A DNA stretch of 64,000 nucleotides from an uncultured Planctomycetaceae bacterium (lineage in GTDB: Bacteria; Planctomycetota; Planctomycetia; Planctomycetales; Planctomycetaceae): the NCBI GenBank assembly GCA_963976765.1, contig CAXBME010000007.1, positions 1-64,000 of the forward strand. The letters are read 5' to 3'. The notes beneath the pieces were generated by a model that was given only the letters and a program-made list of their open reading frames with translations, was not told the DNA's origin and ran no database searches. Below, piece by piece: positions 39,366 through 48,167 of the stretch; position 1 is the stretch's first letter; the number at the start of each line of letters is the position of its first letter. A program made the position numbers and the translations under genes.

Positions 39366-40313
39366 TCACGCCGCGTTGTGCAGACGCGAGCTGACATCGC
39401 GAAGTCGGCTAACTTGCTGGATCAATCGTGGCAGGCCGTCAAGGCCCACAAGGAGAAGCATCAGGTAGCGGAAGACGGCAAAGATATCTCCGGCTTGGAC
39501 GGACGGAAGATGGCACGCTCGGAAGAGGACCGCGACGATTGCTCCCAGTATGAAACATTCCATCAGACCAAAGTTGACGGCCTCGGCGTTGGAGAGTCTG
39601 ATTCGCCAGCGGGCGACTTCGTCGAAGTGGTTTCGGACATCGATCTCGTTTTGAGAATGAATGACGTCGACTTCTTTCTCCAACTCGTCGTGCAGGCCTC
39701 GACTGAGCCGACGCGTCCATTTCGAATAGTGTTGGCTTAGCAGCGCCGCCGGGATCAGCAACCCCAGACAACACGACACGATCACCCAGTCGTACCAGGC
39801 CAGCATGATGACCGAGCCGGCGACGGAGAAAGCGACCTTCATCAGCATCGGGATGGAGCGTTCAAAGAACTCGACGAACTCACGAGAAAGGGATGCCCGG
39901 GCGGTGACGCGTGAAACGTCGACGCCGGACGCTCGTTGCGAAACAATCATCCGCGTGGCCAGATCCGAATAGATCGCTGAAAACGTTCGCGTGTCGTAAA
40001 CCTGCCGGACAAGCCCCACGACGAGATGCAGAACATGCTGACCGACCAGCACGCCGACTCCAAGCATCTGCCCGGCCAGGAGATCGTTAATCGCCCAACC
40101 CAGCGCGAATGGCTGTGCCAGTCGCAGGAGATTCTCGATCGTAAACAGTGCATACGTTGCAAGAATCCGGAGCCGATTCTCGGCGAACATCGACTTCAAC
40201 CTGAAAGTTGATGCGTCGCCGAGAGCTTGTCTTTGAAATACCGGCGGCGATTTCAGCGAAGCAGGAGCCGGACCGGCGTCAACTCGTGAGACGACTGGAA
40301 TGTCAATGGGCAC
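39366..40313 (-). CDS. ABC transporter six-TM membrane domain protein (no ATPase domain)
   Basis: Six hydrophobic segments; ENLL...QPFALGWAIN, RQVYDTRTF and SREFVEFFE motifs; AGGAGG RBS. Confidence 0.75.
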   Translation of the reverse strand: MPIDIPVVSRVDAGPAPASLKSPPVFQRQALGDASTFRLKSMFAENRLRILATYALFTIENLLRLAQPFALGWAINDLLAGQMLGVGVLVGQHVLHLVVGLVRQVYDTRTFSAIYSDLATRMIVSQRASGVDVSRVTARASLSREFVEFFERSIPMLMKVAFSVAGSVIMLAWYDWVIVSCCLGLLIPAALLSQHYSKWTRRLSRGLHDELEKEVDVIHSQNEIDVRNHFDEVARWRIRLSNAEAVNFGLMECFILGAIVAVLFRACHLPSVQAGDIFAVFRYLMLLLVGLDGLPRLIQQVSRLRDVSSRLHNAA

Positions 40314-40357: not shown

Positions 40358-41128
40358 TCAGCTGAAAGCGATCAGCCCAACTTCGCTGCAGTCGGTCAGT
40401 GTTTCGAGCAAGGTTTCGTCGTTGAGCGACGTTGTCAGATCGAGTTGCTTCTTCAGGTTCACGAGGCGGCACGGGCCGAGATCGGCAAGTGTCTGTACCA
40501 GGGCTCGCCCTTCAGGCTCAAGGATCACTGTTCGTACTTCGGTCTGAAACGCGAAGAACAGAACTTCAACTCCGTCTGCGGGAGACTCGTTCTCGCCAAT
40601 CAGCAGGCCCGTTTCGAACACGGCTCGAGTTCTCATCGGGTTGAGGTGAATACTCAAACCGTCGTTGGAATCTAACTCAGATGCGAGCTGTTCGTTCAGG
40701 CTGACAAGTTCCTGAAACCGAACGTGGCCGAGACGGTTTCGTCGCCCAGCCTCTTCCACGGCAAATCGACTTCTGATGACCAGAACAATGTCCCGTTGTT
40801 CCGGGGTCAGCTCGATGACCGTCGGCAACCAGCGTACGAAACGGTCCGTGTCGCTGGTGCCGGTGTCGTAAGCGGCGAGGGGGATTTCCCGGATGTACCG
40901 ACTGATCAGACTCGGCAGTTCTTCCATGTTGTCTGCAAACATTTCGAGCTGGTCTTCCAGTTTGTCGCCGCGTTTGTCGAGATTTCCCGAAGTAAACATC
41001 TCGACGAGTTCATGTGACTGCCCAGCGGAGACGTCGCCGTGGACGACGTCATTCTTTGCGACGGCCAGCGATGTCGCGATGCGCGAAAGTTGTTCCGCGT
41101 AGTCTTTCAGTAGGGTGTCGTTGCTCAT
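40358..41128 (-). CDS. Putative MNIO partner protein (RRE/winged-helix-like C-terminus)
   Basis: ATGA overlap with the DUF692 stop; C-terminal beta-strands plus ILEPEGRALVQTL...LLETLTDCSEVGLI resemble a PqqD/wHTH pattern (inferred). Confidence 0.6.
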   Translation of the reverse strand: MSNDTLLKDYAEQLSRIATSLAVAKNDVVHGDVSAGQSHELVEMFTSGNLDKRGDKLEDQLEMFADNMEELPSLISRYIREIPLAAYDTGTSDTDRFVRWLPTVIELTPEQRDIVLVIRSRFAVEEAGRRNRLGHVRFQELVSLNEQLASELDSNDGLSIHLNPMRTRAVFETGLLIGENESPADGVEVLFFAFQTEVRTVILEPEGRALVQTLADLGPCRLVNLKKQLDLTTSLNDETLLETLTDCSEVGLIAFS

Positions 41129-42022: not shown

Positions 42023-42077
42023 GAATCAACTGCCGGACTGACAACCGGGGTCAGGTATCAGCCCGGCAGTCGGATTC
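42023..42077 (-). promoter_or_regulatory. Stem-loop between the precursor and MNIO genes
   Basis: gaatc-aactgccgg-actga ... tcagc-ccggcagt-cg-gattc inverted repeat, 11 nt past the precursor stop. Confidence 0.55.
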
Positions 42078-42088
42078 GAGTCGCCGAA

Positions 42089-42226
42089 CTACCTTCGACA
42101 GCGGCAGCAACGGCAGCAACGACAGCAGCAGCGACTTGCAGCTGCCTTCTTCGCTCGTTCTGAAGTCCGTAGCGATTTGATTTCGCGAACGGCCTTCTGC
42201 CTCGTCTGTGTGGCTGAGTTCGTCAT
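42089..42226 (-). CDS. Putative Cys/Arg-rich RiPP precursor peptide (45 aa)
   Basis: MTNSATQTRQKAVREIKSLRTSERAKKAAASRCCCRCCRCCRCRR; GGAGAGG RBS before ATG 42226; directly upstream of the MNIO. The track over-extends it to 42367. Confidence 0.85.
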   Translation of the reverse strand: MTNSATQTRQKAVREIKSLRTSERAKKAAASRCCCRCCRCCRCRR

Positions 42227-42954
42227 GGGGATTTCCTCTCCATAGTGCCTCGGAATTCGCCCCGGCAGTGTTTTCGGGTCGGACACGACCAGGGTGATTG
42301 AGGCATGGCCTTGTTTAACGCCAGCCAGAGAACATCTCAGCCGACGCTCCGGTAAGTTCCGGATCAACGATGGCCTGAAGAAGGCACGAGCGATGCCCGA
42401 ATCGCGAAAGATGAGAATCTGTCGTGCTCTAACCTGTTTCCAAAGAAGAAGTTGCCATGTTGAAAGAAATTCTTTGTGGCACGATCGAAAAAGCCGCTGC
42501 GGTTGTCAGAGCGACCGCAGCGGCAGTCGCTCTGACGACATTTCGAGCCGTTGCTGCCGCATCGCTCGACAACTGCGGACCACGTTTATGCGATCGTTTT
42601 TGAGGCTGAGTAGAAATACGTCGCTGCTGAAATCTGCGTAGCATTCCAGCGAAACTGCGGAAACAGGAACATTCCGGGCAGATGGTGCGTGTCGAGTCGG
42701 TAATGCGACTCTGGATTTGAGTTTACACGCTTCCGGGTTCTCACTATATGTTCGCGGCGTTGCATTCGGGCAGAGACTGCGCCTGTTCCCTGGACGTGTC
42801 TGCCTGTTAATCAGAGGCTACTTTGAATGAACAGAGTCGCTGATTGGCTGGGCGGCGTTGCCTTTGGTGCAACGCTCACTTGCCTGCTCACTACCGAGTG
42901 GCAGCACGATGTGCCACCTGACGCGAATATGAACAATTCCTGGAGGAAACTCTC

Positions 42955-44995: not shown

Positions 44996-45292
44996 AGGGT
45001 GGCACAGCCGGATTGGCTGTGTCGCGCAGCAACAAGATGCTTCATCGTCCGGGGGCGATTGAACCGAAAGCCGTTGTTTGCATCGTGCGTTCACGATGAA
45101 ACGTGCTGTGCCTGCGGCTCCAACCATTCTGGTCGGGCCACTCATTTTCAGCTGAGCTTTCAGCTGCCTTGAAACGGGTTTGGCACCTTCTACAATCCTC
45201 GCCAGTTACGCGATGGATTCCGCCTGCTTGCTCAGCGGGCGATGACGCTTTCCAGAGACCACCCTCACCAGACTGCAGAAAGAGATATTGCG

Positions 45293-45835
45293 ATGACCGT
45301 TCAGATTGGCCAGGCCGCTCCGGATTTTGAAGTTCAGGCTTACGACCGCACCAAAGATGGCACCGACGATCAGTTTTCAACGATCAAACTGTCTGATCTG
45401 AAGGGCAAATGGACCTGCCTGTTTTTCTACCCGCTCGACTTCACATTCGTCTGCCCGACAGAAATCGTTGCTTTCAACAAGGCACTCGGCGAATTTGAAG
45501 ATCGTGACTGCGTCGTCCTGACAGCCAGCACCGACAGTGTTTACTCGCACAAAGGCTGGTGCGACGCTCACGAAGATCTGGCCAGCATGGCCTACCCGAT
45601 GCTCGCCGACACGAACCACAACCTGTCGCGAGACTACGGCGTCCTGATCGAAGAAAAAGGTATCGCGCTGCGAGGCGTCTTTCTGATCGACCCGCAGGGT
45701 GTCACTCGCTGGATTTCGATCCACGATCTGGGCGTTGGCCGTAACGTCGACGAAGTTCTGCGAGTCCTCGACGCTCTGCAGACCGACAAGCTCTGCCCAT
45801 GCAACTGGAAGAAGGGCGACGAGACGATTAACTAG
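45293..45835 (+). CDS. ahpC: 2-Cys peroxiredoxin
   Basis: FFYPLDFTFVCPTE, GRNVDEVLR and LCPCNW motifs. Confidence 0.93.
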   Translation: MTVQIGQAAPDFEVQAYDRTKDGTDDQFSTIKLSDLKGKWTCLFFYPLDFTFVCPTEIVAFNKALGEFEDRDCVVLTASTDSVYSHKGWCDAHEDLASMAYPMLADTNHNLSRDYGVLIEEKGIALRGVFLIDPQGVTRWISIHDLGVGRNVDEVLRVLDALQTDKLCPCNWKKGDETIN

Positions 45836-45842
45836 AGTTGGT

Positions 45843-45918
45843 CGCAGGGGGCGTCTAGACGCACCTTTGGCCCGTTAATGAAGCCTTTGCTTCGAAGTGG
45901 TGCGTTGCGCACCCTACG
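45843..45918. repeat. GTAG-type REP doublet
   Basis: cgcagggggcgtctagacgcacc ... ggtgcgttgcgcaccctacg. Confidence 0.65.
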
Positions 45919-45929
45919 GTGAGATTGCC

Positions 45930-45963
45930 ACGGCAGGCTGATTGATTTCGGCCTGCCGTTTTT
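45930..45963 (+). terminator. Terminator-like hairpin between ahpC and the ahpD-like gene
   Basis: acggcaggc...gcctgccgt followed by tttt. Confidence 0.6.
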
Positions 45964-45985
45964 CAATAGGTATCGGAGTTATCTC

Positions 45986-46612
45986 ATGTCACGCATTCAA
46001 CCGCTGCCCGAATCGGAAGCCGAAGGCAAACTCGAACGCACGTACGGTCGCATCAAAGAGATGCTCGAAGCCGATGCCGTGCCTGAGCCATTTCTGACTT
46101 ACGGTCGTGTCGAAGCTTTCCTCCAGGACTTCTATATGAACTTCAAAAAGTTCGTGTACACCGACGGAGCTCTGGATGCGAAGACGAAAGCGATCCTCGG
46201 CTTGGCAGTCAGCGGCCACTATGGCTGCACGGTGTGGCTCGACTTTTTTACCGAGCGTTTGAAGTCGCTCGGTGCGGAGGATGGCGCGGCGGCGGACGTG
46301 CTGGCGGTGGCGTCAACTAACTCGATGTACAACTCCTTCTTCAAATTTCGAGATCTGAGTGGTTCGGAAGTCTTCGGCGGGATGTCCGTCGGTCTGCGGG
46401 CTCACACATTCATGAACACGTCGCTTGATGACAAGACGGTTGAGTTGATCAACACAGCGATCAGTAACCTGAATGCGTGCAAGCCGTGCACCTCGGGCCA
46501 CGTGACCAAGAGCCGCGATCTGGGAGCATCCGACGATCAGCTTCTGGAAGCCATCCAGTGTGCCTCAACCATGGCTGCCGGATGCAGTTTTCTGAAAGCT
46601 GCGGAAGCCTGA
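45986..46612 (+). CDS. AhpD-like alkylhydroperoxidase / CMD family protein
   Basis: MYNSFFKFR and ELINTAIS.LNACKPCTSGH (E..CxxC..H) motifs; follows ahpC. Confidence 0.8.
   Translation: MSRIQPLPESEAEGKLERTYGRIKEMLEADAVPEPFLTYGRVEAFLQDFYMNFKKFVYTDGALDAKTKAILGLAVSGHYGCTVWLDFFTERLKSLGAEDGAAADVLAVASTNSMYNSFFKFRDLSGSEVFGGMSVGLRAHTFMNTSLDDKTVELINTAISNLNACKPCTSGHVTKSRDLGASDDQLLEAIQCASTMAAGCSFLKAAEA

Positions 46613-46850: not shown

Positions 46851-48167
<1,317 letters not shown>

Follow-up and report, generated by a model that had tools for sequence, protein, structure and literature searches.

The locus described here raises the question of what is encoded by a 45-codon open reading frame (ORF) that lies ahead of an MNIO (DUF692) gene in a 64,000-nucleotide stretch of DNA from an uncultured Planctomycetaceae bacterium (hereafter the window), and whether this frame is a gene at all. 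An earlier note, made from the sequence alone, had presented the frame as an easily missed precursor with a Cys- and Arg-rich core, unusual for an MNIO substrate, whose product may bind metals or act as a cationic antimicrobial. As judged by sequence comparison, the ORF is a real gene under selection. Furthermore, we estimate at roughly 0.55 the probability that it encodes a precursor peptide of a Planctomycetaceae family of MNIO RiPPs, so far undescribed and devoid of signal peptides, whose Cys residues would be oxidised and whose products would bind soft metals. The frame opens a four-gene unit on a single strand, in which the precursor gene and a hairpin are followed by genes for the MNIO, its partner protein and an ABC-type membrane domain (Table 1).

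Table 1. Coordinates in the window of the precursor gene, its sequence elements and the genes of the associated unit.
Feature	Position	Strand	Basis or characteristics
Precursor peptide gene P0001, 45 aa plus TAG	42089..42226	minus	Basic N-terminal leader and Cys/Arg core
Shine-Dalgarno-like GGAGAGG, 8 nt 5' of the ATG	42235..42241	minus	
Leader motif V-R-E-[LI]-x-x-L-R, residues 13-20, putative RRE recognition sequence	42167..42190	minus	Alignment
Core, residues 31-45, eight Cys, period-3 Cys-Cys-Arg repeats	42092..42136	minus	
Stem-loop between precursor and MNIO genes	42027..42072	minus	Folding energy, covariation
MNIO (DUF692), 280 aa, cluster 18 subfamily of PMC12452194	41125..41967	minus	PF05114, 189.1 bits (cut-off 25)
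MNIO partner, 256 aa, PME-type 2 (DUF2063-like helical domain and C-terminal RRE fold)	40358..41128	minus	AF2 fold match
ABC-exporter-type membrane domain, 315 aa, stand-alone	39366..40313	minus	PF13748, 178 bits

The ORF, whose product is designated P0001, was found as the earlier note had described it. Eight Cys fall within the last 13 residues (positions 33, 34, 35, 37, 38, 40, 41 and 43), the peptide contains 14 Arg/Lys against two acidic residues, the ribosome binding site (RBS) is strong, and the core employs a mixture of synonymous codons, i.e., TGC and TGT for Cys, and CGC, CGT, CGA and AGG for Arg. The absence of a signal peptide was likewise borne out by a hydropathy check (as distinct from SignalP), the best nine-residue Kyte-Doolittle mean in the N-terminal part being -0.26. 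The window contains no other place, in any of its six frames, with eight Cys in 13 codons, nor did any of 40 triplet shuffles of the window produce one, while P0001 represents the sole instance of a CC[RK]CC[RK]C-type motif in all six frames of the 8.57-Mb genome.

Selection at the level of the peptide, which the earlier note had deduced from the codon mixture, is apparent from comparison with three equal-length orthologues of the same genus, which yielded pS values of 0.50-0.63 and pN values of 0.03-0.10. In these comparisons 16-20 changes fall at third codon positions versus 3-10 at the first two, and the last 13 codons exhibit 5-8 synonymous and 0-2 non-synonymous changes. Differences in core length between homologues correspond to whole C-C-R codon units, the number of which ranges from one to three across homologues. 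In the window, three stops interrupt the aligned antisense frame of the precursor; the antisense frame with a common wobble position is open there and closed in three of eight same-genus loci. A count of open sense frames, being circular, was disregarded.

Database searches with P0001 returned no NCBIfam match and no Pfam match over the cut-off; its exact sequence is absent from a collection of 15 billion proteins, the ESM Atlas gave no usable match, and no second copy of the precursor was found in its own genome. A match to Pfam DUF2477 (17 bits, below the cut-off, in two of 63 precursors) was rejected as compositional. No sigma-70 site was returned by the promoter scan, which also left the hairpin unflagged. 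An inverted repeat is situated at approximately 42500-42540, some 280 nt 5' of the start codon of the precursor, within the long stretch that separates it from the divergent acyl-carrier and fabF genes.

From MNIO loci, 63 distinct precursors of 37-65 residues were gathered, further dispersed copies being kept out of the counts given for these 63. Their starts were set by rule, as the Met ahead of the leader motif with the best ribosome site; for L118, L128 and L162 the true start probably lies a few codons further 5'. At least four of six matches to AGGAGG were observed 5' of 60 of the 63 homologues, a count that is not independent because the starts were partly picked by RBS score. The strict motif V-R-E-[LI]-x-x-L-R is present in the leader of 55 homologues, and in the alignment of all 63 the residues R14, E15, L19 and R20 are at least 90% conserved. 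The leader segment ending in KKAAA to which the earlier note had drawn attention does occur in P0001 and proved to be a local variant, [KR]KAAA being found in only 10 of 63 homologues; the commonest tetrapeptide before the core is E-R-H-R (21/63). By alignment, the conserved element is the V-R-E-[LI]-x-x-L-R motif rather than KKAAA. As in P0001, a hydrophobic signal stretch is absent from the family, as judged by the median over the 63 homologues.

The core is the variable part. Fifty-two of the 63 are of the C-C-R type, five of the C-R-S type, and six are assigned to other types, namely a six-residue repeat, a period-4 C-x-R-G pattern, mixed C-R-x cores and those with CHGCH or C-H-R. CC is present in 55 of 63 homologues, and 371 of the 395 core Cys adjoin Arg, Lys or His. 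Counts within R-x-y-R units are 122 for CC, 38 for x-C and 19 for C-x, and either Cys of a pair can therefore be replaced. The common denominator of the family is a Cys beside Arg, Lys or His together with the leader motif. The net charge of the core is approximately +5. The earlier note had regarded vicinal Cys as unusual for an MNIO substrate; CC is indeed prevalent here, but it is not a family invariant, and the claim to uniqueness is weakened because two cysteine doublets are already described for Group III methanobactin precursors (PMC3621798). One of the 63 precursors matches TIGR04117 (Cys-Xaa-Xaa-Xaa radical SAM target; E 4.7e-5), P0001 does not, and no radical SAM gene is found among the cluster genes of the window. 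None of the 63 matches the models for DUF2282, Buf2 or EGKCG precursors.

Several loci depart from the arrangement in the window. Tandem precursor copies occur, three in L130 and three in L219, and up to eight copies per genome are found in genus g38 (L202-L217 and L230-L237), near-identical C-R-S-repeat precursor genes being dispersed over a genome that has a single MNIO. The same leader precedes a CHGCH or C-H-R core, resembling a CxxCH motif, at L031:2490-2621, L032:2801-2938 and L033:3782-3928; an extra gene separates precursor and MNIO in L031 and L032, and a long frame lies between MNIO and partner in L033. A conserved leader combined with variable, tandem or dispersed cores conforms to RiPP logic.

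Searches of 301 Planctomycetaceae genomes for the partner, the precursor and the MNIO subfamily (threshold for the latter E<=1e-70) yielded matches in 87, 54 and 57 genomes, respectively. A precursor match was obtained in 50 of the 57 MNIO genomes, all 50 of which also possess the partner, while among the 244 genomes in which the MNIO was not found, one has an apparently genuine precursor (G575, an assembly of 640 contigs). As the precursor alignment was built from MNIO-adjacent peptides, this co-occurrence is partly circular, and because, in addition, the genomes are related, no p-value is attached to it. In six genomes (G010, G472, G506, G551, G594 and G616) the MNIO has no peptide gene beside it and the precursor is located elsewhere; five of these six are outside the alignment used. 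Among the 52 strongest MNIO genomes, 50 have a precursor HMM match; of the two exceptions, G473 carries a divergent precursor found by eye, and the locus of G446 is at a contig end. These two and five weaker sister MNIOs (G157, G457, G475, G493 and G588), four of them in genomes without a partner, make up the seven MNIO genomes without a precursor match. The link to a DUF692 enzyme drawn in the earlier note holds in cis or in trans, and a lack of conservation in related loci, which that note had set as a ground for refutation, does not apply, since the precursor is conserved, under selection and tied to the MNIO.

Weak precursor matches in G013, G668 and G684 proved to be internal to unrelated frames, and those at L084-L089 and L093-L097 were also rejected. 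For the sister MNIOs of G961, G736, the second G895 locus, G157, G457, G475, G493 and G588, no precursor was present among the matches listed; two sister MNIO loci in which no precursor was found (L154 and L158) have an apparent CzcA/CusA-type efflux gene upstream, recognised by eye. Partner-like genes without the MNIO subfamily occur in 34 of the 301 genomes, none of which has a precursor match. Many of these genes (L101:4937-5665, L103:4435-5127 and others) lack about 50 N-terminal model positions and lie in unrelated contexts; a few reflect contig breaks only, and the rest possibly belong to an orphan RRE-fold family with another job. The partner was detected in 30 of 97 genomes of the family and in five of 303 other genomes of the class, and nowhere outside the family in the phylum sample. 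Genomes that bear the cluster include complete ones, e.g., G646 and G616. The contig of L034, bearing MNIO and partner, is labelled Deltaproteobacteria, the single non-planctomycete label among 13.

In the MNIO itself the expected ligand residues are conserved: H58, H93, E141, D173, N176, H205, D220, H222, E251 and D253 are invariant in 105 orthologues and, from residue 55 on, were aligned with 3bww, TglH and MbnB. We take the ligand roles of these residues to be those known for the family. The proposed catalytic Asp is retained, D253 corresponding to FonB D249 (PMC13097082) in a mapping that runs via 3bww. Against NCBIfam models the enzyme scored far below every cut-off, i.e., BufB 155.8 (cut-off 310), HvfB 139.7 (360), ApyH 75.9, ChrH 39.1 and MbnB 31.7 (325). 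Position 254, which follows the catalytic Asp, is occupied by Gln in the majority of C-C-R loci and in each of the three C-H-x loci, whereas the majority of C-R-S and C-x-R-G loci have Ala, a pattern drawn from loci that are kin and to be read beside a tree that is a quick one. In that tree the subfamily is set apart from eight ordinary DUF692 proteins with an SH-aLRT of 99, and no statement is made on how often the core types arose because its inner forks are open. Four loci (L163, L132, L050 and L081) hold broken copies, with a frameshifted MNIO and partner (G569) or an internally shortened MNIO (G604); two metagenome loci among them are frameshifted, and these copies may be assembly errors. 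Beyond the window, the genome under study has another MNIO gene, of the ordinary kind (360 bits; G000:C7:82452-83231, also L001 and L112), preceded by a thiolase gene and followed by a DUF2063 (PF09836) partner; no clear Cys-rich precursor was seen there.

The partner gene overlaps the MNIO stop codon, and in one genome MNIO and partner are fused as a single 545-residue frame (L029:4001-5635 / L127:1571-3205). The partner has no Pfam or NCBIfam match, including none to PF09836 at E 0.1. Its AF2 model (pLDDT 93.4) was matched by VIA to NGO1945 3dee (Z 13.6, rmsd 3.6, 192 residues aligned) and to chain C of TglHI 8hci (Z 13.2, rmsd 4.8, 224 aligned), with RRE domains ranking next. Foldseek placed the same entries on top, its best being 8hi7 (TM 0.58) at an E value of 1.4e-3, i.e., above 0.001. 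Matches to MbnC chains were weak in VIA (Z 5.7 and 4.6, below NGO1945 and TglI), and no MbnC HMM match was obtained.

The membrane protein carries no ATPase domain and no ATPase gene is adjacent to it. Its AF2 model (pLDDT 84.5) resembles 3qf4 (VIA Z 19.9, rmsd 3.3, 281 residues) and SbmA 9g3d (Z 16.9, rmsd 4.1, 274 residues), which makes it a candidate transporter of the product. The gene is located 3' of the partner in 40 of 59 MNIO-containing loci and is missing from 19, as counted over loci with at least 600 nt downstream, with one genome entered twice and flanks that often extend over just 1.5 kb. Among the neighbours examined, no conserved metal-transport, metal-regulator, regulatory or immunity gene was observed, nor is a protease or second tailoring enzyme conserved in the cluster. 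At a distance of 3-6 kb, the opposite strand carries AhpC and AhpD-like genes together with a frame that by eye resembles a sulfhydrylase (window positions 45242-46612 and 46869-48167); loci of the same genus likewise have ahpC in the vicinity of the cluster, which is probably plain synteny. A PF10017 histidine-specific methyltransferase (EgtD type; L098:2476-3435) is near the cluster in one g38 genome, and a frame close to L231 was judged EgtB-like by eye alone.

The stem-loop between precursor and MNIO has a folding energy of -37.7 kcal/mol (z -6.0), a stability equalled by none of 200 shuffles. Its consensus among ten close relatives comprises 19 pairs, three of which display two-sided changes, and a U-rich tail follows the hairpin in relatives. 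The z value is below -2 at 38 of 63 homologue loci, and the structure is weak at the other 25. It may act as a partial terminator or as an mRNA-stabilising element.

The enzyme belongs to a group that has been published. Orthologues MBI5761274.1 and MBM81573.1 (74-75% identical), NQV26006.1 and REJ87237.1 are placed in MNIO cluster 18 of PMC12452194, which has at least 24 members in its supplementary file 1, and orthologous partners are listed there as PME-type 2; membership of the window MNIO was assigned via these orthologue accessions. The main text of that paper names precursors for clusters 1-4, 7, 11-13, 17 and 21 and none for cluster 18, and mentions no Planctomycetota, in agreement with the preprint. 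This absence of a cluster 18 precursor refers to the main text, figures aside, and Fig. 5b and Fig. S3 may bear on novelty. In the literature searched, chiefly open-access papers, no description of the precursor family was found; two supplementary files of PMC13097082 yielded no motif or taxon match, and the portions of PMC8692599 and PMC12710340 consulted deal with other systems. The peptide very probably represents the missing substrate of this orphan MNIO group.

Of the known systems, the captophorins (the bufferins BufABC, the oxazolin HvfABC and the fontiphorin FonABC) share with the window the gene order precursor-MNIO-partner, a Cys-repeat precursor, the best NCBIfam scores (BufB and HvfB) and the catalytic Asp. 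They differ in that the family described here has no Sec signal and measures 37-65 residues versus the 80-120 reported for the BufA1 type, its partner is devoid of the DUF2063 Pfam signature that is a feature of PME-type 1, its core follows a period-3 Cys-Arg pattern versus EGKCG or Cys-Lys 5-mers, a membrane-domain gene is added, and BufB/HvfB scores reach about half of the cut-off or less. Methanobactin systems (MbnABC) likewise possess a short, signal-less precursor with a Lys/Arg-rich leader that is better conserved than the core, a dedicated transporter and, in some members (Group III), cysteine doublets (PMC3621798). In contrast, the partner is nearer to NGO1945/TglI (Z 13) than to MbnC, the MbnB score is a small part of its cut-off, the C-(G|A|S)-(S|T) core motif (PMC3621798) is absent from P0001, and no MATE or TonB-dependent transporter was seen near the window cluster. 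The system would operate along the lines of captophorins or methanobactins, yet it falls outside the definition of either.

TglHI (pearlin/3-thiaglutamate) and other PME-type 2 systems (ApyHI, PbsC) have the same partner fold and a signal-less precursor. They differ from the window cluster, from which PEARL, radical SAM, P450 and methyltransferase genes are absent and whose precursor has many internal Cys, while TglA has one C-terminal Cys. The membrane protein shares the six-helix exporter-type fold without ATPase with SbmA/BacA-type and type IV ABC membrane domains, but it belongs to PF13748 and is only 10% identical to SbmA, and full ABC exporters score as high or higher. Adjamnio-I and -IV precursors, with 119-293 residues (PMC12452194), are far longer than those of the present family, and Adjamnio-1, -2 and -7 belong with MNIO clusters 1, 2 and 7 (PMC12452194).

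The following biosynthetic route is proposed. Owing to the hairpin after its stop codon, the precursor would probably be produced in larger amounts than the enzymes. The RRE of the partner would very likely bind the V-R-E-[LI]-x-x-L-R motif and feed the core to the MNIO, by analogy with MbnC, which binds the MbnA leader (PMC8888699); signal-less precursors are known to accompany PME-type 2 partners (PMC12452194). That Cys is the target of the MNIO can be assumed with little doubt. A di- or tri-iron enzyme would then, using O2, oxidise several Arg-flanked Cys in succession, a somewhat favoured outcome by analogy being rings of the 5-thiooxazole type, each of which would entail a loss of 4 Da and retention of the thiol, with perhaps one ring per C-C-R unit. 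This chemistry and a role in metal buffering are preferred because the nearest curated enzymes, BufB and HvfB, form 5-thiooxazoles on Cu-binding peptides (PMC13097082, PMC11626156). The chemistry of captophorins is not simply transferable, since FonBC left substrates with a charged residue after Cys unprocessed (PMC13097082); at the selectivity position the window MNIO has Gln (and CRS-type loci Ala), Phe and Asp being the residues described (PMC13097082). NCBIfam scores at about half of the cut-offs or less, the placement in a small MNIO cluster and the absence of a conserved metal-related gene among the neighbours examined likewise weigh against the preferred reading, as do the loci without the membrane gene, the precursor of G575 and the sister MNIOs for which no precursor was found. 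The product would be a polycationic, thiol-dense peptide that, again by analogy, could well bind soft metals, e.g., Cu(I), and buffer metal or oxidative stress. Chances appear even that the ATPase-less membrane domain, rather than the Sec pathway, moves this product through the inner membrane. As no dedicated protease is encoded, the leader would be kept or cut by a housekeeping protease.

A possible, though clearly less probable, account retains the same precursor and enzyme pair and invokes another Cys chemistry, i.e., oxazolone/thioamide formation as in methanobactin, carbon excision as by TglH or a new cross-link, leading to a cationic antibacterial or signalling peptide and no metal buffer. 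The separate MNIO cluster with its TglI-like partner would fit this account, small MNIO clusters outside the large bufferin/captophorin cluster being expected by the authors of PMC12452194 to do different chemistry, as would the charge of the core, the signal-less and Lys/Arg-rich leader resembling MbnA, the dispersed and slightly varied copies in genus g38, and a membrane domain whose fold is also that of the peptide transporter SbmA and of the microcin exporter McjD, and which could serve export or self-protection. On the other hand, the MNIO sequence is much nearer BufB/HvfB than MbnB or ChrH, the cluster has no conserved protease, second tailoring enzyme or clear immunity gene, and the near-monotonous core repeats seem to suit a multivalent chelator over a target-specific antibiotic. 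It is unlikely that the peptide acts largely unmodified, in the manner of a metallothionein or protamine, while the MNIO works elsewhere. R-C-C-R resembles protamines, the density of Cys and Arg is very high, and the precursor of G575 without an MNIO and the 34 genomes with only the partner indicate that the parts can separate; but G575 is alone among the MNIO-less genomes, none of the partner-only genomes has a precursor, the invariant part is the Cys-free leader while the core varies, and the cluster offers no further conserved candidate for a substrate.

That the ORF is a cis-acting attenuation leader, in which stalling on Cys/Arg codons governs the hairpin and the MNIO operon, would explain why a run of such codons lies just 5' of a strong hairpin with, in relatives, a U-rich tail. 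This account is very improbable and largely refuted because trans copies exist: the precursor is far from the MNIO in some genomes and occurs in up to eight copies, while amino-acid conservation resides in the N-terminal leader, an RRE protein is encoded downstream, and the hairpin is weak at many loci. Finally, the frame could represent no gene, i.e., a simple repeat of the GCA/GCG type or the mirror image of an antisense frame rich in Ala/Thr, as the DNA pattern by itself turns up frequently (viral contigs gave at least 120 matches, all to unrelated repeats) and the antisense frames are often open (47/63 and 35/63). Among 80 viral control loci drawn from these matches, however, the core motif was found in 72 frames, none of which ends a Met-started ORF of 25-70 residues or has a leader, MNIO or partner match. 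The viral control and the pN/pS values refute this explanation, the likelihood of which is negligible, and the conserved start, stop and ribosome site and the closure of the antisense frames in several orthologues point the same way.

The preferred reading, that of an oxidised, soft-metal-binding MNIO product, involves neither a new enzyme superfamily nor new biosynthetic logic. A more far-reaching version of it, which we consider rather doubtful, holds that both Cys of each C-C pair are oxidised to directly linked bis- or tris-thiooxazoles between arginines, that one leader-guided enzyme pair serves up to eight dispersed precursors, and that passage of the product through the membrane relies on an ATPase-less ABC-fold transporter; the direct linkage of the rings, should both Cys be converted, is our own chemical deduction. 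If true, the product would be a conjugated, polycationic poly-thiol heterocycle, of which the literature consulted contains no description.

With this precursor, an MNIO cluster that is known from the literature but lacked a substrate gains a probable one, and a three-gene expression experiment becomes possible. Under one leader, nature offers a series of substrates (C-C-R, S-C-R, C-x-R-G, C-H-x and six-residue repeats) together with a co-varying active-site position, and this series could show how an MNIO chooses its Cys, what becomes of adjacent Cys, and whether thiooxazole chemistry reaches into signal-less PME-type 2 systems. Furthermore, the locus would for the first time place the stand-alone PF13748 membrane domain in a functional setting and would provide the Planctomycetaceae with a candidate stress or metal peptide.
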